Shown one piece after another: positions 1,576 to 51,768 of a stretch of DNA of 64,000 nt; the stretch's first letter is position 1, and the number at the start of each line of letters is the position of its first letter. Origin of the DNA: Escherichia phage vB_Ec-M-J; the sequence record OQ718158.1. One strand, given 5' to 3'. The notes under the pieces are model-generated. The model saw nothing but the letters and a program-made list of their open reading frames with translations, was not told the origin of the DNA and searched no databases. A program made the position numbers and the translations under genes.

Positions 1576-2499
1576 GTGCCAAGTAAAAAGCCAGATTCTG
1601 AAGTATTCAGACTGGTTGATGAAAAATTGAGTTCAATTGGTTCATCGGTAAAAATGGATAGAACAACATACACAACCATATCAAACAAATCAACTTTTTT
1701 CTGTGATGAATGTGGGTTTAGTAAAAATATCATAGTTAGGAATGTGTACAAAAATGGAATATTTTGTCATTGTCCCACATTTAAAACTTTATATAATAAA
1801 TTGGGTGAAATTAATTCAAAATTAAAATTAGATATTTCCACATTCACAACTACAAAAAACAAATCTAGATTTTATTGTGACGATTGTGCGTTTGAAAGAT
1901 ATATGACGGTGCATGATGTTAAGTCTAGAGGTGCATATTGTAAATGTCATTCATTATATTGTATGCCGTTAGATATCGACGAAGCATATAACACTATTAT
2001 GAATAAAATAAAAGATTACTCAAATACAATACATATGGATAAATCTACATACCGTGGTACACAATATAAGGTTAGATTTTATTGTACAGAGTGTAATTTT
2101 GACAAATATATTAATTATAGTAGAGTTAAATGTGGAACTCTTAACTGCAATTGTATCAGACCAATCCCAGAAGAAAGTAAATTATATATTTTAGGAATAT
2201 ATGAACAAAATATTTTAATAAAATATAAAGTTGGTATTTCTACAAAGATTGATAAATCAAGACTAATTAGTATTAGGTCAAAAACTAATTTTATAGTAGA
2301 GGAATTATATTATTTTACTGGAAATACCGAAGTTATTAAAAGTGTAGAATATAATATTTTAAATCTGCTTAAAAATAGTAGTAAATTGTCAAAGGATTAT
2401 TTTGGCGATGGGTATACTGAAACATTTGATTTACAAGATATAAATCTTGTTATTGATTATGTATGTAAATGTTTACTCGAAAATAAATTAAAAATATGA
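1576..2499 (+). CDS. GIY-YIG-like nuclease domain protein with three tandem Cys-rich zinc-ribbon repeats (possible homing endonuclease)
   Basis: Three repeats of F[FY]C[DT][DE]C.F...C.C; C-terminal GIY...YKVGIS with downstream R/E/N; GTG start at 1576 with AAGGAG RBS. Confidence 0.5.
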   Translation: MPSKKPDSEVFRLVDEKLSSIGSSVKMDRTTYTTISNKSTFFCDECGFSKNIIVRNVYKNGIFCHCPTFKTLYNKLGEINSKLKLDISTFTTTKNKSRFYCDDCAFERYMTVHDVKSRGAYCKCHSLYCMPLDIDEAYNTIMNKIKDYSNTIHMDKSTYRGTQYKVRFYCTECNFDKYINYSRVKCGTLNCNCIRPIPEESKLYILGIYEQNILIKYKVGISTKIDKSRLISIRSKTNFIVEELYYFTGNTEVIKSVEYNILNLLKNSSKLSKDYFGDGYTETFDLQDINLVIDYVCKCLLENKLKI

Positions 2500-2524
2500 A
2501 AATCATAAACACAAGGAATGTGAA

Positions 2525-3253
2525 ATGATAGATAATATAAAATTTGCAACAGAAATGGCGAATCAACTCAATATAGCAAATTTTCAAATGTTAACATCTG
2601 TTATGGCTGAACATGCTGCTGCATATTCATCTAGTGGTATACAATGTGGACAAGCTAACATGTTAGCTGATGTTTATAGTGAAGTTCAAAGCAAACAATA
2701 TAGCGTGAAGACATACAAGGATAAGTTCGTAAGTCTTTATATGAATGAAGATATTTCAGAAGACCGCAAATTCACCGATTTTATTATTGAACGCCGTATT
2801 AGTGGGGTTTCAGACCCAAATGCAGAAAGTGATATTGTATTCGATGAGGTATTAAAAGATATATACGAAAATGAATTGAAAAGTAAGAATCATTACAATG
2901 TACGTGAAACTAACACAGTGCTAGTTGGATATGATGAAGACGAACAATATTTCTATTTTCGTATAACAGAAGTTCCATTTGAATATAAAAAACCAACCAC
3001 TACATCTGTAAAAGAATTCACTGAGAAGAGTAAAAACTTCAAGAAACACGAAGGAAACCGTTGTAGTATTAATGGTTATGATGAAAATGGTGTTCATGTT
3101 TATGAATGGGTTTCACCTAATTGCCAGACATACACCCGTTGCTTGAAGAAACGTTATAATTTAGAAGACAATGAATCCTTCTACTTTAAAGTTAAGAAAC
3201 AAGGTTATACTCGCCCTGAAGATTCAGAATTGATGGGTATGGTATATTTCTAA
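2525..3253 (+). CDS. hypothetical protein
   Basis: Track ORF; AAGGAA RBS; leader shares the aacacaaggaRtgtg motif with the 1576 gene. Confidence 0.6.
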   Translation: MIDNIKFATEMANQLNIANFQMLTSVMAEHAAAYSSSGIQCGQANMLADVYSEVQSKQYSVKTYKDKFVSLYMNEDISEDRKFTDFIIERRISGVSDPNAESDIVFDEVLKDIYENELKSKNHYNVRETNTVLVGYDEDEQYFYFRITEVPFEYKKPTTTSVKEFTEKSKNFKKHEGNRCSINGYDENGVHVYEWVSPNCQTYTRCLKKRYNLEDNESFYFKVKKQGYTRPEDSELMGMVYF

Positions 3254-11718: not shown

Positions 11719-12461
11719 TGAAACATTTTTTGGAAGTTACAGTACCGGATGATAAAGATTTATATATCGTTGGTGATTTACACGGCAATGGAAAACTGTG
11801 GGATGCTACCAAGAAAGAATTTGGTATCACCAATAATGACTATGTTTTTTGTGTAGGTGATGTTATTGACCGTGGTGACCAGAATTCCAAACTACTATTT
11901 GAATTCCTTTTCGGTGAAAACCGTTTTATGATTGCTGGGAACCACGAGATCATGTGTGTTGATTCTGAAACTCACCGTGACTGGCATCACTGTTGGGTAC
12001 AAAATGGTGGAGATAAGTTCATTGATGAAGTTGGTGAGACAGGTATACAGTTCTTCCGTCAGTACTTAAAGGATCTCCCTATGATTATCCAAATCAATCA
12101 CCGAGGATTGAAGATTGGACTGGTTCATGCTGGTGTTCCTTTGGAATATACCACATGGGAACGTTTCGTTAGTGGGACAAAATCACTTAGTGCTGATATA
12201 ATTGAGAAGTGCTTGTGGGACCGTGATACATTCGACTACTGCAAGAAAAATAACACATATTACGTCCCTAGACTTGATGGCATCCATTGCGTCTTTAGTG
12301 GTCATACCGCAGTATCCGACCCACTCATCTACGGTAATCGTATCTGGATTGATAGTCAGTTTTTAACTGGTGATTTGACTCTTGCAACTCCCCAAAGTGG
12401 CGGGATGAGATACTTACGTAAAGAAAAAGATGAGTATTCATTTAACCGCTTCAAAAGGTAA
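11718..12461 (+). CDS. serine/threonine protein phosphatase (calcineurin-like metallophosphoesterase)
   Basis: Motifs GDLHG, GDVIDRGD, GNHE in canonical order. Confidence 0.75.
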   Translation: MKHFLEVTVPDDKDLYIVGDLHGNGKLWDATKKEFGITNNDYVFCVGDVIDRGDQNSKLLFEFLFGENRFMIAGNHEIMCVDSETHRDWHHCWVQNGGDKFIDEVGETGIQFFRQYLKDLPMIIQINHRGLKIGLVHAGVPLEYTTWERFVSGTKSLSADIIEKCLWDRDTFDYCKKNNTYYVPRLDGIHCVFSGHTAVSDPLIYGNRIWIDSQFLTGDLTLATPQSGGMRYLRKEKDEYSFNRFKR

Positions 12462-12465
12462 TAAT

Positions 12466-12735
12466 ATGCATGATGATATTAAAAAATCATTGTATGATTT
12501 ATATATTATGAAAAAAACCATCAATTCTATACTTGCCGACCAGATCAAACAGGTACGTAACTTCCTATCAAAAAAACTTATTGGTGCAGAGGTTAAATTC
12601 TATTACAAAAAAAATGTCGTGGTTGATGGTGTTATTAGAAGAGTAGTTACAATTTCAGACCAAACAATATATGTTGAAGTTGAATATGATGGTAAATTAT
12701 CACAATTAAGTACTGAAGATTTAACATTTTTATAA
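12466..12735 (+). CDS. hypothetical protein
   Basis: ATG at 12466 within track ORF 12430..12735. Confidence 0.5.
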   Translation: MHDDIKKSLYDLYIMKKTINSILADQIKQVRNFLSKKLIGAEVKFYYKKNVVVDGVIRRVVTISDQTIYVEVEYDGKLSQLSTEDLTFL

Positions 12736-46617: not shown

Positions 46618-47229
46618 ATGTCAAAATATCAGGTCTACTATGTTGCCAAACTATCACTTCTTGATGAGTTAAATCAAAGAAGTACACAGATGAAACGCTA
46701 TACATATAACGGTGTTACTTTCCGATACTTCCCACAAAAAGTACTTACATTCGTTAAGAATTGTAAATGCGTTGCGTGTGGTATTGAAGCTACTGAAGTT
46801 CGCATTGAGCGTTCACATAGCACTGATCCGGTATATGGTAAACCTCACTTAAATGTCTATGCAGTTTGTGGTCTATATGAAGTACTGATGACAGTAGATC
46901 ATAACCAACTAGCATCTAAGGGTGGACCTGATTTAGAGTCAAATTACAACACAATGTGTTCACGTTGTAACAGTCTTCGTTCTAATAAAACTGAATCAGT
47001 AGGTGAATTCCTGGAAAAAGTTAAGGGTAGAAATCTACTGGAAGAGCATATGAATGATTTTTTCAATAAAGATAAGAAGAAATCTAAAACTCCTACTCCA
47101 GAAGAATTGGAAGAACGCCGTTTACGTACAGAACTATGGGAAACCGACCATATATGGCATGTTCGTGATTTTGGACGACATATGAAAGCTCTAAAAAAAG
47201 AACAAAAGAAATTGAATAATCACAATTAA
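46618..47229 (+). CDS. HNH endonuclease (possible free-standing homing endonuclease)
   Basis: HNH signature VDHNQLASKGG...N..CSRCNSLRSNK plus CKCVACG zinc motif. Confidence 0.6.
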   Translation: MSKYQVYYVAKLSLLDELNQRSTQMKRYTYNGVTFRYFPQKVLTFVKNCKCVACGIEATEVRIERSHSTDPVYGKPHLNVYAVCGLYEVLMTVDHNQLASKGGPDLESNYNTMCSRCNSLRSNKTESVGEFLEKVKGRNLLEEHMNDFFNKDKKKSKTPTPEELEERRLRTELWETDHIWHVRDFGRHMKALKKEQKKLNNHN

Positions 47230-47239
47230 TATGTTATGA

Positions 47240-47273
47240 TAGGGACTTGAGAAATCGAGTCCCTATTTTTTTG
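47240..47273 (+). terminator. rho-independent terminator
   Basis: TAGGGACT...AGTCCCTA hairpin followed by TTTTTTT. Confidence 0.75.
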
Positions 47274-48039: not shown

Positions 48040-48067
48040 GGGACATAATACATCCTAGTGATATAAT
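48040..48067 (+). promoter_or_regulatory. sigma70-like promoter, extended -10
   Basis: GGGACA 48040-48045, 16-bp spacer, TGaTATAAT with TATAAT at 48062-48067; fires into a region without a convincing ORF. Confidence 0.55.
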
Positions 48068-48073
48068 GTATAT

Positions 48074-48590
48074 TGTAAAATGACAACGGACATTGAAAAA
48101 TGGATAATGAGAACCTACTTCTCTTGAAAATGTAAAGGATAGATGAGCTTTACCGTTGTAGCGAACAGCAAAAGAAACCTGTTAGAGTACTGGCAATCAA
48201 ACAAACACGAGATAAGACCACGAATCACGGCGACACGGCTGTATAAAGAACTCCAATAAGCACACAGAGAGTTCCTAGATAGATGTATAAGGTTCGCACC
48301 TTACGAATTTGCTAAGGGAGTTCAAGGATTGTGGACGCGATTTTACAAGAAAGTTGCGTCCAAAATTTGAGAACAGGTACTACTTTGATCGAATAGAGTT
48401 TAGTACTGAGTGCTGTTGATGAAAAGACCAGCGACCGTTGCATATGACTGCGATAGAGAGAAACCGAGCAACCCGCTTTCGCTCTCTAAATTTTGGTACA
48501 GGAAAGATCCGTCCAAAATTTGAGAAATTCGCAATTCGATAATATCCGATGCCATCATCGTCAAGAGAGACTTAATTGTCTCTTTTTTAT
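48074..48590 (+). ncRNA. candidate noncoding transcript(s) of unknown class
   Basis: Promoter-to-terminator unit of ~0.5 kb, visibly GC-richer than surroundings, several hairpins, a ~28-bp imperfect direct repeat (48347-48374 and 48503-48530), no plausible ORF. Confidence 0.3.
48564..48590 (+). terminator. rho-independent terminator
   Basis: AGAGAC-TTAATT-GTCTCT followed by TTTTTT. Confidence 0.7.
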
Positions 48591-48728
48591 TACCTTCATT
48601 CCCCTGCGGGGGGATGAAATAGTCCTCAACAAATCCCGTCAAGCTTTTAAAGTACATTATCATTTTCAGAAGGAACTAGTTTACGAAGTAAACGTAGTGA
48701 CTTCTTGAGTTACGAGAGAACGAAGTGA

Positions 48729-49157
48729 ATGAGTAACACAACGAAAATATCCAATACATCTGAATTAACACAAATGTTATTCAAAGAATATTTTGAGTAT
48801 CAAATCAAAAGCGATCATGATTTGGTTCAGACATATTTGAAGAGAATCAAAGATCCATTAAGTTTAAACAAAGGAACTGAATTTTATAACAGTATTTTAG
48901 ACTTTATTAATTTAGTTCATACAAACAGACCTATTGTAGTTTTCTTCTTTGATAAATCAATTCCTGTAGAAGTTCCTGATAATGTATTTTTTGTTACAGA
49001 AACTGATTTAAGTAATCAAAGTACTGTAAGTAGATTAAGGAATTGCTTACTTATAATTTGTGATTCTTCATTATATAACAATAGAGTACTATGGAATAGA
49101 AGTAAGAGAAATGCAGTTTCAGAAATGAATCCTGAAGTTACCTTTATTATTAACTAA
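48729..49157 (+). CDS. hypothetical protein
   Basis: Track ORF. Confidence 0.5.
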   Translation: MSNTTKISNTSELTQMLFKEYFEYQIKSDHDLVQTYLKRIKDPLSLNKGTEFYNSILDFINLVHTNRPIVVFFFDKSIPVEVPDNVFFVTETDLSNQSTVSRLRNCLLIICDSSLYNNRVLWNRSKRNAVSEMNPEVTFIIN

Positions 49158-49187: not shown

Positions 49188-49628
49188 ATGGAAAATATTA
49201 ATGATTTACGACATGTAATGGACTTTATCGGAGATACTGAAGAAGATAGTTCTTATGATGAAGTACTACTTACATTTATTGAGAATAGTTTATTTTTAAG
49301 TGCTGCTGCTCACAACTGGCATTTACAGAGCCATTTCTACACTAAGCACCTACAATTGGATGAACTATACAAAGAGTTACCTGAGTACGTTGATGCATTT
49401 GTAGAGGGTATTATGAACACTCGCGGGGCATTGCAGGTAGGTACTGGTAACAGTTATCGTTTTACCCCTATCGAGGATTGTGTACCAATTCTTGAAGAAT
49501 ATGTTAGTCAATGTAAAGCCATTCATGCTATGCTAGAAGAGGCTGAAGACTATGGTAGTACTAACACGCTAGAAGACATTATGAGTTTTTGTGAAGGAAT
49601 GCTTTACAAACTTAAAGTTTTACAATAA
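49188..49628 (+). CDS. hypothetical protein (possible Dps/ferritin-like helical bundle)
   Basis: Weak resemblance of AAHNWHLQSHFYTKHLQLDELY to Dps helix motifs; low confidence. Confidence 0.45.
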   Translation: MENINDLRHVMDFIGDTEEDSSYDEVLLTFIENSLFLSAAAHNWHLQSHFYTKHLQLDELYKELPEYVDAFVEGIMNTRGALQVGTGNSYRFTPIEDCVPILEEYVSQCKAIHAMLEEAEDYGSTNTLEDIMSFCEGMLYKLKVLQ

Positions 49629-51288: not shown

Positions 51289-51768
51289 ATGTATAACCTT
51301 ACAATTATCCGCGAACCAAATGAATATGACGGTAATACAACCTATGGTGAAGTTTTGGTATTTCAAAGTACTGAACAAAGTGGTATTGAACATAAATTAA
51401 AAGATTATTTACGTGATCATTTATATCTGCACCGTACTGATGCAAATTGTAATTATGGTGATATAATGTTTATTGTAACGCACAATGGTGCGGTAATTGA
51501 ACATATGAACATGACAAATGTAATGGATTTTTATAATTACACTGATACTTCTTTTCCATTGGATAACTATTTCAGTACTGTTTTTGATGCGTTACGTAAG
51601 AACGTTGCTAAAAATGATAGATTCTGTACTAATTTTAGATTATTAGAAACAAATACAAGAAAGAATCTTTCTAAGAAGTATGATGAAGAACATAAGAAAA
51701 ATCAGGAAATTCAACGTTTACATGAGTTAATGAAGAAATATCCCAACGAGGTCAAATATGGCTCTTAG
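51289..51768 (+). CDS. hypothetical protein
   Basis: Track ORF; AAGGAG RBS. Confidence 0.5.
   Translation: MYNLTIIREPNEYDGNTTYGEVLVFQSTEQSGIEHKLKDYLRDHLYLHRTDANCNYGDIMFIVTHNGAVIEHMNMTNVMDFYNYTDTSFPLDNYFSTVFDALRKNVAKNDRFCTNFRLLETNTRKNLSKKYDEEHKKNQEIQRLHELMKKYPNEVKYGS

Follow-up and report, generated by a model that had tools for sequence, protein, structure and literature searches.

A Large Structured Noncoding RNA Family Carried in Several Copies by 121Q-Type Jumbo Phages and Present in Bacterial Integrative Elements

Introduction

To our knowledge, very few classes of bacterial or phage noncoding RNA are longer than 400 nt and have a complex, conserved tertiary structure. Such large classes are proven or suspected ribozymes, ribonucleoprotein cores, or RNA-only nano-assemblies. 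Among noncoding RNA genes of T4-related myoviruses, T4 carries a tRNA region together with stable RNAs (species 1 and 2). Phage morons, independent promoter-gene-terminator units, are insertions among the genes of a phage; in prophages, they are often sited at the int-cI region. GOLLD and ROOL, large and ornate noncoding RNAs that have Rfam families and are often encoded by phages or prophages, form RNA-only homo-oligomeric cages (PMC12286853). In the Pseudomonas phage PA5oct, RNA-seq defined four ORF-less "lncRNAs" of 236 to 619 nt on the + strand, two of which are highly expressed throughout infection; according to the authors, GenBank sequence similar to ncRNA001 and ncRNA002 is found only in isolate MIJ3 (PMC7318152). 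PA5oct is a jumbo phage of the wider RaK2/121Q/GAP32-related group and a distant relative of the phage considered here, and its ORF-less transcripts are the only precedent that we found for discrete transcripts of this kind.

We analyzed an intergenic island at positions 48040 to 48728 of a 64,000-nt stretch of DNA (the window) from Escherichia phage vB_Ec-M-J, a jumbo phage of the 121Q/PBECO4 type (Asteriusvirus). With a probability of roughly 70%, we take 48040-48589 to be a complete, independent early gene for a noncoding RNA of ~515 nt, organized as a trans-acting module from promoter to terminator. Like GOLLD and ROOL, this is a phage- and prophage-borne noncoding RNA in the 0.5- to 0.8-kb range with many predicted helices and pseudoknots, highly conserved unpaired nucleotides, optional peripheral modules, and no linked protein partner. 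Unlike them, it does not match their covariance models, belongs to jumbo myoviruses of Enterobacterales, and occurs as four paralogues in each genome, all equipped with a sigma-70 promoter and a terminator of their own. A family profile searched against PA5oct ncRNA001 and ncRNA002 with nhmmer (filters off, E up to 10) gave no match.

Results

An earlier note on this DNA had described the island as a structured stable-RNA gene that is GC-richer than its surroundings, has no credible ORF and no canonical tRNA T-loop, and runs from a consensus extended −10 promoter to a terminator. This description was borne out. The GC content of the island is 0.405 to 0.425, compared with 0.26 to 0.355 in the flanks. 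Each + frame contains 11 to 16 stops across the island; the longest + strand ORFs within the RNA body are 34 to 38 amino acids long, a 71-amino-acid + strand ORF (48493-48708) spans the terminator, and an 87-amino-acid ORF lies on the − strand. GenBank records of relatives either leave the island unannotated or list mini-ORFs that disagree in strand and position from record to record. Neither a conserved frame nor an excess of third-position changes was detected: substitutions in the island fall 36/46/43 by codon phase, without three-base periodicity, whereas those in the flanking genes are periodic (e.g., 25/18/78 and 40/19/85). Identity among relatives is 95.8 to 97.4% within the island versus 90.4 to 94.5% for a 1.6-kb stretch that includes flanking genes, and the island can be aligned across genera at 66 to 75% identity.

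ARAGORN reported 0 tRNA or tmRNA genes in the whole 64-kb window; the tRNA genes of this phage type lie elsewhere (at 72 to 78 kb in 121Q). The comparison with the tRNA and small-RNA islands of T-even phages, also drawn in the earlier note, held in its idea of a noncoding stable-RNA gene in a T4-related myovirus. The analogy proved to be a loose one, because the island encodes one RNA of ~515 nt, without tRNA-like features, rather than a cluster of RNAs of 70 to 140 nt.

The promoter (48040-48067, + strand) consists of a −35 element, GGGACA (48040-45), a 16-nt spacer, and TG-n-TATAAT with the −10 hexamer at 48062-67. It scores 10 of 12 consensus matches in addition to the TG of the extended −10, is predicted to be of the early sigma-70 class, and would set the transcription start at about 48072-48075. 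The promoter is conserved ahead of all 29 aligned copies; in the 27 copies whose upstream sequences are listed, TG-n-TATAAT (with the TG missing in one) follows a GGnACA-like −35 element. The same promoter type precedes structural gene 6 of 121Q. At the other end, an intrinsic terminator (48564-48589, + strand) pairs GAGAC (48567-71) with GUCUC (48578-82) in an extendable stem around the loop UUAAUU, followed by six U residues (48583-88). A simple terminator scan did not flag it. All five pairs of this stem (helix 15) covary across the 29 homologues, and stem and U-tract are retained in 26 of 29 copies. The hairpin is missing in copies C and D of 121Q. Initiation by host sigma-70 RNA polymerase is predicted at this conserved promoter and release at the terminator, which would give an RNA body of ~515 nt from the predicted 5′ end to the U-tract (48073-48589).

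To evaluate the structure of this RNA, 29 copies were aligned by sequence alone with MAFFT. RNAalifold predicted 68 pairs from this alignment, 40 of them with compensatory changes. In the curated structure, the 79 pairs (in 16 helices) were 96.2% paired across the copies, compared with 79.7% in shuffles, and 52 of the 79 pairs showed changes on both sides. The covariation score was 0.457, versus 0.156 in shuffles, and none of 500 shuffles reached it; because the 29 sequences are phylogenetically clustered, these shuffle statistics overstate independence. A control that addresses the clustering, in which pairing partners were slid, yielded covariation of only 0.035 to 0.068. Folding of the RNA body, suggested earlier as a check, gave a minimum free energy z-score of −4.18. 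The locus thus shows the generic marks of a structured noncoding RNA, namely, compensatory pairing above both shuffled and slid controls and a conserved promoter and terminator of its own. These data also bear on the possibility that the island holds DNA-level signals only (promoters, terminators, or protein-binding sites) or is what remains of a protein gene after decay or frameshifting. Small hypothetical ORFs are annotated in several GenBank records, and the element downstream of the terminator is invariant in sequence, both of which would suit such an explanation. It is effectively refuted by the double compensatory changes, which extend to long-range and pseudoknot pairs and which neither DNA-level signals nor coding would explain, and by the lack of codon periodicity. 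The ORFs annotated in different records also agree in neither strand nor position.

The transcript is predicted to fold into a compact, multidomain structure held together by long-range helices and three hairpin-loop pseudoknots. Many unpaired bases are invariant, including purine-rich junction nucleotides. The 5′ domain (48083-48162) contains pseudoknot PK1, hairpins P2 and P3, and a near-invariant GAUGAG (48142-47). In PK1, 48083-90 pairs with 48152-59, the latter located in the loop of a 3-bp hairpin (48147-49/48160-62); variants among copies include ACAACGG/CCGTTGT, TCAGTGG/CCACTGA, CTGATTGA/TCAATCAG, CTGTTGAA/TTCAACAG, and ATGTTGG/CCAACAT. P2 (48091-94/48099-102) is variable, and P3 (48120-25/48135-39) carries a near-invariant 9-nt loop, GAAAAYGUA. 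In the central domain (48165-48242), helices P4 (48165-69/48238-42; three of five pairs covary) and P5 (48179-82/48227-30) enclose a variable arm that takes a long or a short form among copies, and internal loops of the GAAAC and GCAAUGCG types are conserved. The next segment (48248-48303) is formed by hairpins P7 (48248-53/48269-74) and P8 (48288-92/48299-303), with a conserved linker, GAUAGA, between them. In P7 (helix 6), all six pairs covary, with up to four pair types. Downstream, the first seven bases of UAAGGGAG (48313-20) are invariant.

Helix Hx (48320-23/48371-74), in which all four pairs covary, is capped by module M1 (48326-48368), which is present, absent, or different among copies. 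Hairpin Pa (48376-48407; 48376-86 with 48395-99 and 48402-07) keeps a stem of 10 to 12 bp in 29 of 29 copies despite very different stem sequences. Seven of its eight loop nucleotides pair in an H-type pseudoknot, PK3 (48388-94 with 48534-40; helix 8), whose partner strand lies ~140 nt downstream; this helix is 99.5% paired, with four covarying pairs. The segment 48411-48481 starts with hairpin Hc (48411-15/48429-33) and continues into the most conserved core of the RNA, GACCGUUGCAUAUGACUGCGAUAGAGAGAAACCGAGCAACCCGCUUUCG, which holds PK2 and the 5′ strand of helix Hg. PK2 joins 48437-41 to 48468-72, within the loop of a hairpin at 48456-60/48476-80, and occurs as GTTGC/GCAAC, GTTAC/GTAAC, or GTCAT/ATGAC. 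For the core alone, identity in Klebsiella RaK2-type phages is 86 to 89%. Helix Hd (48483-86/48522-25) is capped by a second optional module, M2 (48489-48521), swapped for a short loop in many copies, and four of five and four of four pairs covary in helices 11 and 13, respectively. A continuous 3′ strand (48529-40) then closes Hg (48449-53 with 48529-33) and, through 48534-40, PK3. The 3′ hairpin GAUG/CGUC (48548-48562; helix 14), with its conserved loop CCAUCAU, is 92% paired, and its changes are one-sided, from U-G to C-G only.

This fold gives a place to the repeats and hairpins that had been pointed out in the island. The perfect GGACGC/GCGTCC hairpin (48333-38/48356-61) is real and forms the core of a 13-bp hairpin within M1. 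The imperfect direct repeat measures 30 nt at 90% identity, with copy 1 at 48344-73 in the M1 region and copy 2 at 48497-526 in M2; its common 16-mer occurs twice, compared with 0.13 occurrences expected by chance. The repeat is an optional hairpin module placed at two sites of the fold. The GC-rich hairpin reported there, TTCATTCCCC-TGC-GGGGGGATGAA, is likewise present (48595-48618) and lies beyond the terminator.

A search of the window against Rfam 15 (4,227 models, including GOLLD, ROOL, OLE, HEARO, raiA, RNase P, 6S, group I and II introns, small ribozymes, and riboswitches), a check that had also been proposed earlier, detected nothing at the gathering threshold. Under permissive settings, the only matches in the island were below gathering (Afu_199 at 48532-48592, mir-205, and HPnc0580; E = 2.9 to 7.8), and the Afu_199 match reaches into the 3′ end of the RNA. 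Six other family members gave nothing inside the RNA at E up to 1. We found no description of the family in the literature on 121Q/RaK2-type jumbo phages, on GOLLD and ROOL, or in surveys of structured RNAs.

Several known identities were considered and rejected. A hammerhead-like reading of GAUGAG...GAAAC fails by eye, as the sequence reads UAGAUGAG and not CUGAUGAG, and it has no Rfam match. Of two T-loop-like sequences, UUCGCAC (48293-99) is not conserved and AUCGAAU (48388-94) pairs with 48534-40. Shine-Dalgarno sequences followed by small peptides were considered at UAAGGGAG, GAUGAG (ATG at 48143), and GGGGGGAUGA; the downstream frames vary in length or are absent among copies. Membership among group I or II introns or mobile ribozymes does not fit an intergenic RNA that starts at its own promoter, splits no flanking gene, and gives no match to Rfam models of introns or ribozymes even when E is relaxed to 1 to 10.

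Immediately downstream of the terminator lies a second conserved element (48595-48643), composed of the hairpin UUCAUUCCCC-UGC-GGGGGGAUGAA (48595-48618) and a box, CCTCAAC-AAATCCCGTCAAG (48624-48643). The hairpin (helix 16) shows no compensatory change, and its G6AUGA arm is nearly invariant. In the 121Q genome (348 kb), the four cassettes are the only places where the CGTCAR box is found, and all four have it; the G6-A-T/A-GA arm is also confined to cassettes and is exact in three of four, with copy A reading GGGGGGATGT. The element is retained in the bacterial copies described below. The box was also compared with a T4-type late promoter: in the cassettes, CGTCAR is followed only by a variable TATAAT/TATAAA/TATTAA/TTTTAA-like element; 121Q late genes carry nATAAATA. 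It is possible that the box is part of a middle-type promoter with a conserved upstream box. The remaining tail (48644-48728) is less conserved, contains a small hairpin (GTTTAC-GAA-GTAAAC), and ends before the ATG of the next + strand gene (48729-49157). At the tail position, other copies have a conserved unit of ~100 nt, GAATTGAG ... AACGAAAATTC, followed by a covarying hairpin, TTTGACATTC-GAA-GAATGGCAAA (variants CAATC/GATTG and CATAC/GTATG). This unit may correspond to a second, small transcript or may extend the RNA by read-through.

The post-terminator element is central to the main rival of our reading, a cis-acting replication-origin module whose structured transcript would serve as a pre-primer in the manner of ColE1 RNA II and the T4 oriF and oriG R-loop RNAs. 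In this scheme, RNA reading through the terminator would remain hybridized at the G6/C4 element just downstream and provide the primer for the leading strand; each of the four copies would mark an origin, and the copy in bacterial elements would let an infecting jumbo phage replicate them. ColE1 RNA II resembles this RNA in size (~0.5 kb) and promoter type. Likeness to the known primers extends to the predicted ~0.5-kb transcript, the host-type promoter, and a G-run/C-run near the 3′ side, and several copies in a T4-like genome would match multiple origins. Replication functions of the phage include a T4-like replisome, RNase H, and a UvsW-like helicase, and copies occur in integrative elements that are possible satellites. 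Three further points favor an origin and also count against the trans reading: the invariant, noncovarying C4...G6 element lies ~10 to 30 nt past the terminator, is found in cassettes only, and is left unexplained by a terminated trans-acting RNA; in copies C and D of 121Q, without the terminator hairpin ahead of this element, some transcripts must run into it; and four copies dispersed over the 348-kb genome in one orientation would also fit a cis role on the chromosome. We nonetheless consider an origin unlikely. In contrast to ColE1 RNA II, which has no such stop, 26 of 29 copies place an efficient-looking, covarying U-tract terminator between the RNA and the G-rich element. Three pseudoknots and dozens of invariant unpaired bases far exceed what known primer RNAs require, and there is no sequence similarity to them. 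The cumulative GC skew of 121Q is uninformative: it mirrors gene orientation only and has no origin signal at the four loci. The cassette is accompanied by neither an initiator gene nor iterons.

To determine how widely the cassette is distributed, we examined its homologues in phage and bacterial sequences. Homologues were found in 71 phage records from nine host-named groups at 66 to 100% identity, with two to five (usually three to four) matching places per genome in RaK2-like jumbo phages. Metagenomes add about 25 copies to the 29 that were aligned, so that 50 or more are now known. 121Q has four full, diverged copies, all on the + strand, at 90.3, 192.8, 247.4, and 326.6 kb; an nhmmer profile recovers exactly these four and one in the window. 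No second copy was found within the 64-kb window, where the sole trace was a promoter-like 21-mer at 51458-78. In the records inspected, copies occupy gaps of 600 to 900 nt without credible genes, and their neighbors differ from copy to copy. At least two of the four copies keep their genomic position across genera: copy B lies beside endonuclease VII and baseplate hub genes, and copy D lies beside a sigma factor gene. Constant neighbors indicate that B and D are ancient, stable paralogues rather than products of active transposition.

This distribution also speaks to a giant cis-regulatory leader (a riboswitch or attenuator) that would govern terminator read-through into the gene at 48729-49157. 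The order of promoter, long structured RNA, terminator, and same-strand gene, seen in the window and in several other copies, would be expected of a leader, as would one paralogue type that, in Munch, Kaldavass, and Serratia BF, precedes a gene for an ADP-ribosylglycohydrolase. Downstream genes vary between copies, however, and unrelated genes follow the bacterial copies. Copy B lies between opposite-strand genes with no + strand gene after it in 121Q, 7t3, and Serratia BF, which excludes a leader role for that copy type. No alternative anti-terminator pairing is supported by covariation, and we regard a leader as very improbable.

Complete cassettes were also detected in two kinds of bacterial element. 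One lies beside an integrase in a genomic island of E. coli, detected in 2 of 5,426 genomes and carried by strain LR-29-1. The other belongs to a temperate element at a modABC/galE locus, where it is flanked by the recombinase on one side and a CI-type repressor on the other. The E. coli island also bears candidate defense genes. Only the ~0.68-kb cassette is common to the two elements, so that no protein partner transferred together with the RNA is shared between them; one DUF4326 domain is the only protein similarity of either element to 121Q. A plasmid search gave no match. A scan of genome contigs with a 16-base pattern, which was too loose, returned at least 120 stretches, and nhmmer on the loci taken from these gave only four very weak partial matches (E = 0.004 to 0.01). 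These results place the RNA in a multicopy, horizontally mobile family.

Mobility of this kind could reflect a selfish RNA element or its remnant (for example, ribozyme-based or intron-derived), kept by spreading and of no benefit to the phage. Such an element would account for the same cassette in differing contexts across genera and in two unrelated bacterial integrative elements, and rearranged partial copies were seen on one metagenome contig (L201). Copies A and D each have an HNH endonuclease gene no more than ~1 kb away (window positions 46618-47229 and 121Q gene 170, respectively), a linkage seen for only two of four copies. We judge this explanation improbable, given the constant neighbors of B and D; a cassette without terminal repeats, target duplications, or a recombinase or reverse transcriptase gene; the lack of an Rfam intron or ribozyme match; and strong purifying selection on unpaired nucleotides.

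Discussion

We favor the interpretation that the island encodes an RNA that acts in trans, as its genomic context suggests. The folded RNA would work as a self-sufficient unit, a moron made of RNA and governed by a promoter and terminator of its own. Its action on an enterobacterial host or phage component might be that of a scaffold, of a decoy or sponge, or of a ribozyme. The RNA would be neither a cis regulator of a neighboring gene nor protein coding. As in morons, the unit lies between unrelated genes, is transferred as a whole, and is found in a genomic island and, in a temperate element, in the region of integrase and repressor. Unlike morons, its cargo is a large structured RNA instead of a protein gene, and it is a stable, multicopy core feature of a lytic jumbo lineage.

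More tentatively, and with less than even confidence, we propose that this is a previously unrecognized, triple-pseudoknotted class of large (~0.5-kb) RNA in enterobacterial jumbo phages that works independently of protein, is expressed early from four paralogous genes, and circulates as an autonomous "RNA moron" acting by itself. It could then function as a ribozyme, assemble from RNA alone as GOLLD and ROOL do, or serve as a decoy or sponge where phage and host, or two phages, are in conflict; a takeover or antidefense RNA that bacterial elements have captured as a countermeasure would be one example. Its carriers would be lytic phages, temperate elements, and the genomic island with candidate defense genes.

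About 70 GenBank genomes currently annotate these RNA loci as nothing or as spurious hypothetical proteins. The structure of the family is well constrained by covariation, and its jumbo phages infect culturable hosts (E. coli, Salmonella, Klebsiella, Yersinia, Serratia, and Erwinia), with some being phage therapy candidates; the family is therefore directly open to genetics. That four copies have been retained across genera is an argument for the importance of the RNA to infection by these 350-kb phages. Transfer of the cassette, as the sole common sequence, into an E. coli island with candidate defense genes and into a temperate element suggests that it takes part, at the RNA level, in conflict between phage and host or between phages.

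Conservation and non-coding character of the island

The 1.6 kb around the island (48040-48728) is 99.1 to 99.8% identical to eight Escherichia jumbo phages (including Turkey3, EC.P1, Ecwhy_1, fEgEco12, and WPEC5) and 90 to 94% identical to 121Q and PBECO4, members of the genus Asteriusvirus with genomes of ~350 kb. The elements described in the earlier note were all recovered: a promoter, GGGACA-N16-TG-n-TATAAT (48040-67); a terminator stem-loop with a T6 run (48564-89); the GGACGC/GCGTCC hairpin (48333-61); an imperfect direct repeat of two 30-nt units (48344-73 and 48497-526; 90% identical), whose common 16-mer was found twice versus 0.13 times expected; and a GC-rich hairpin, TTCATTCCCC-TGC-GGGGGGATGAA (48595-618). 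GC content is 0.41 to 0.43 inside the island versus 0.26 to 0.36 alongside, as had been proposed.

The note had also seen no credible ORF and no canonical tRNA T-loop. Each + strand frame contains 11 to 16 stops, and the longest + strand ORFs comprise 34 to 38 amino acids inside the RNA body and 71 amino acids across the terminator. GenBank relatives leave the island unannotated or carry small ORFs discordant in strand and position. A hidden coding frame, named beforehand as a refuting observation, was absent: when close relatives were compared, the RNA's substitutions lacked codon periodicity (36/46/43), whereas those of the flanking genes were periodic (27/18/42, 40/19/85, 85/61/98, and 25/18/78). 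ARAGORN detected 0 tRNAs or tmRNAs in the window. An Rfam search of the window gave no match at gathering thresholds, permissive filters gave only noise overlapping the island (E at least 2.9), and no family matched any of seven copies tested. Single-sequence folding yielded a minimum free energy of −133.3 kcal/mol (z = −4.18). The feature is real, and its interpretation as a structured non-coding island is supported.

The 689-bp island is 95.8 to 97.4% identical to its counterparts in 121Q and PBECO4-type phages, better conserved than the 1.6-kb stretch including the flanking genes (90.4 to 94.5%). By blastn, 71 records in total match the island, with 66 to 75% identity in Cronobacter GAP32, Pectobacterium CBB, Yersinia fHe-Yen9-04, Xanthomonas XbC2, Serratia BF, Erwinia, and Salmonella 7t3 and Munch phages; Klebsiella RaK2 and K64-1 match its most conserved core. 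In the inspected records the RNA lies in a 600- to 900-nt gap free of credible genes, with varying neighbors: a large hypothetical protein (GAP32 and CBB), ADP-ribosylglycohydrolase (Munch and Kaldavass), a sigma factor gene (RaK2), or endonuclease VII and baseplate hub (Serratia BF and 7t3). One paralogue type, in Munch, Kaldavass, and Serratia BF, consistently has an ADP-ribosylglycohydrolase gene downstream on the same strand; in Serratia BF this gene was recognized visually, by its GxxxGDAxG motif in an alignment. This adjacency may reflect no more than synteny, or it may hint at a functional link between the RNA and ADP-ribosylation.

Four paralogues in 121Q

After assembly of the whole 121Q genome from seven pieces, four copies were found, all on the + strand and each inside an annotation gap: D (~90.3 kb), immediately after sigma factor gene 167; C (~192.8 kb); A (247.4 kb), which corresponds to the copy in the window; and B (~326.6 kb), with endonuclease VII gene 594 on one side and genes 595/596 on the other. 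An nhmmer profile matched exactly four times in 121Q and once in the window, where self-BLAST detected no second copy. Serratia BF, 7t3, and one metagenome contig share the B position, and RaK2 and metagenome contigs share the D position; the duplication is therefore old, and the paralogues have been stably retained. That the RNA is a selfish mobile element is very improbable, given this conserved synteny of B and D and the absence of a mobility gene and terminal repeats. The genes around copy B lie on the opposite strand. Because it has no downstream co-oriented gene, the B-type RNA at least is not a cis leader. With an IMG/VR exact-pattern scan the set reached 29 distinct copies, and a metagenome scan contributed ~25 beyond these.

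Endonuclease genes were observed near three copies: an HNH endonuclease gene (46618-47229, +) two genes upstream and within about 1 kb of copy A; another HNH endonuclease, 121Q gene 170 (91320-92108), within about 1 kb of copy D; and the endonuclease VII gene abutting copy B. Their proximity may be fortuitous or may reflect mobility in the past. Right after the HNH gene in the window is a strong hairpin of 13 bp that, with its T-run, looks like a terminator (47238-47267, +) and bears that annotation in phage UE-S1. The island's second downstream gene (49188-49628, +) encodes, by relatives' annotation, a "starvation-inducible DNA-binding protein" that is Dps-like and unusual for a phage. Metagenome contig OGVK01004308.1 (2,263 bp) carries three partial family matches, one to the 3′ two-fifths and two to the 5′ ~200 nt, which suggests that copies there are rearranged or in tandem, or that the contig was misassembled. 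In 121Q (KM507819), ~2 kb lacking an annotated gene among many tiny ORFs (135194-137161) did not match the RNA family.

Transcription signals

Upstream of the RNA in 27 of the copies are a (T)GGnACA-like −35 element, a 16- to 17-nt spacer, and TG-n-TATAAT (TG missing in one). Promoters of this type also stand before other genes presumed to be early (121Q gene 6, for example), whereas 121Q structural genes carry a different, T4-like nATAAATA late motif. At 51458-51478 (+) there is probably another early promoter of the GGGACA-N16-TGnTATAAT type, as 21 nt there match (95%) the −10 region of the RNA's own. The terminator stem varies with full compensation (AGAGAC/GTCTCT, GTACAC/GTGTAC, GATCC/GGGTC, and GTACC/GGTAC), with double changes in 5/5 pairs counted and a U-tract following in 26 of the 29 copies; the hairpin is absent from 121Q copies C and D. 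From the conserved promoter and terminator signals, we infer a primary transcript of ~515 nt, spanning roughly 48073-48588, that would be made early by host RNA polymerase.

Covariation and architecture of the RNA

The 29 copies were aligned by sequence alone (MAFFT; alignment A1; 695 columns). RNAalifold predicted 68 pairs, 40 with compensatory changes. The curated structure comprises 79 pairs in 16 helices and exceeded shuffled alignments in pairing (96.2% versus 79.7%), in pairs changed on both sides (52 versus 34.5), and in covariation score (0.457 versus 0.156), with 0/500 shuffles reaching any of five measures. When 3′ partners were slid by 1 to 3 columns, a control that preserves relatedness, pairing fell to 37 to 44% and covariation to 0.035 to 0.068. 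Approximately 100 positions do not vary, and unpaired purines at junctions account for many of these.

The 5′ domain contains hairpin P3 (48120-25/48135-39), with a near-invariant GAAAAYGUA loop, and pseudoknot PK1, which pairs 48083-90 with 48152-59, the loop of a small covarying hairpin (48147-49/48160-62). PK1 occurs as ACAACGG/CCGTTGT, TCAGTGG/CCACTGA, CTGATTGA/TCAATCAG, CTGTTGAA/TTCAACAG, GTGTGG/CCACAC, and ATGTTGG/CCAACAT. In the central domain, P4 (48165-69/48238-42) and P5 (48179-82/48227-30) bear a variable arm, all 6 pairs of P7 (48248-53/48269-74) covary, and P8 follows before UAAGGGAG (48313-20), whose first seven bases are invariant.

In the 3′ domain, hairpin Pa (48376-48407) has a 10- to 12-bp stem in 29/29 copies despite unrelated stem sequences. 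Seven of its eight loop bases pair in PK3 (48388-94 with 48534-40), a helix 99.5% paired with four covarying pairs; PK3 would be a canonical H-type pseudoknot with a first loop of one nucleotide. A near-invariant core (48434-81) contains PK2 (48437-41 with 48468-72; variants GTTGC/GCAAC, GTTAC/GTAAC, and GTCAT/ATGAC) within hairpin 48456-60/48476-80, and helices 48449-53/48529-33 and 48483-86/48522-25 have four covarying pairs each. The direct repeat of the earlier note is predicted to be a peripheral hairpin module (consensus roughly TACARGAAAGnTnCGTCCAAAATTTGAGAA). In the window's copy it caps helix Hx (module M1, with the GGACGC/GCGTCC hairpin) and helix Hd (M2); other copies have it at one site, both, or neither. 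Such optional modules are typical of the expansion segments of large RNAs.

We consider it established that the island is an independent gene whose product, a large structured RNA, represents a new family; it is non-coding and not a tRNA. GOLLD and ROOL are closest in character, being large, ornate, phage associated, and protein independent (PMC12286853), but their Rfam models fail here, and host range, copy number, and gene organization differ. In the distant relative PA5oct, RNA-seq defined four ORF-less transcripts (PMC7318152); two compared with our family had no detectable relationship to it. Our literature search found no paper describing the family, which does not disprove an earlier report elsewhere. 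We regard this large, pseudoknotted RNA as a new class of phage RNA.

The post-terminator element

Every copy, bacterial ones included, retains the G-rich hairpin (48595-618) and a box, CCTCAAC-AAATCYCGTCAR (48624-43). These are confined to the four cassettes within 121Q and had no compensatory change in A1. A variable TATAAT/TATAAA/TATTAA-like element immediately follows CGTCAR. Beyond it lies, in most copies though less clearly in the window's, a unit of ~100 nt containing the covarying hairpin TTTGACATTC-GAA-GAATGGCAAA; B copies have another terminator after this unit. As compared between the window (48595-48728) and related loci (L012, L011, L005, E. coli L181, and metagenome contig L205), this region may extend read-through transcripts at their 3′ end, may supply a second promoter under different regulation together with a small RNA or 5′ untranslated region, or may be a DNA site.

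The element is the chief support for the strongest rival explanation, a ColE1 RNA II-like or T4 ori-like primer module, with which four dispersed, co-oriented copies and a cassette-specific G6/C4 element agree. We consider it unlikely, since a covarying terminator separates the RNA from the G6/C4 element, the RNA structure is far more complex than known primers, and the GC skew of 121Q gives no origin signal.

The cassette outside jumbo phages

The full cassette (promoter, RNA, terminator, G-rich hairpin, and box) was found at 75% identity in 2 of 5,426 complete E. coli genomes, LR-29-1 (NZ_AP027515 3466977-3491465; cassette at locus 11834-12543) and EEC_W5. In LR-29-1 it sits in a ~10-kb island adjoining ffs, together with a resolvase, a tyrosine integrase that IS3 interrupts, and candidate defense genes of PADLOC PDC-M45 (DuOB, DUF488, and mSLOG-DUF4326). 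A small ParB-like protein was also noted there by eye. On metagenome contig Ga0160437_1000255, the cassette (locus 2488-3183, − strand) has a large serine recombinase on one side and a CI-type repressor on the other, a setting that marks the integrase-immunity region of a temperate element; the surrounding bacterial chromosome fragment carries modABC, modE, modF, and galE. None was found in plasmids. The E. coli island and the temperate element have only ~0.68 kb of cassette in common and no protein, and neither shares a gene with 121Q apart from one DUF4326 domain.

We infer that the RNA either acts by itself or targets something that enterobacterial cells, or infecting jumbo phages, have in common. 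With moderate confidence, it would work in trans as a folded RNA: a scaffold, decoy, or ribozyme. Because the bacterial elements share only the cassette, it behaves as a self-contained module, a "moron" with RNA cargo: a ~0.68-kb transferable unit that evidently needs no co-transferred partner.
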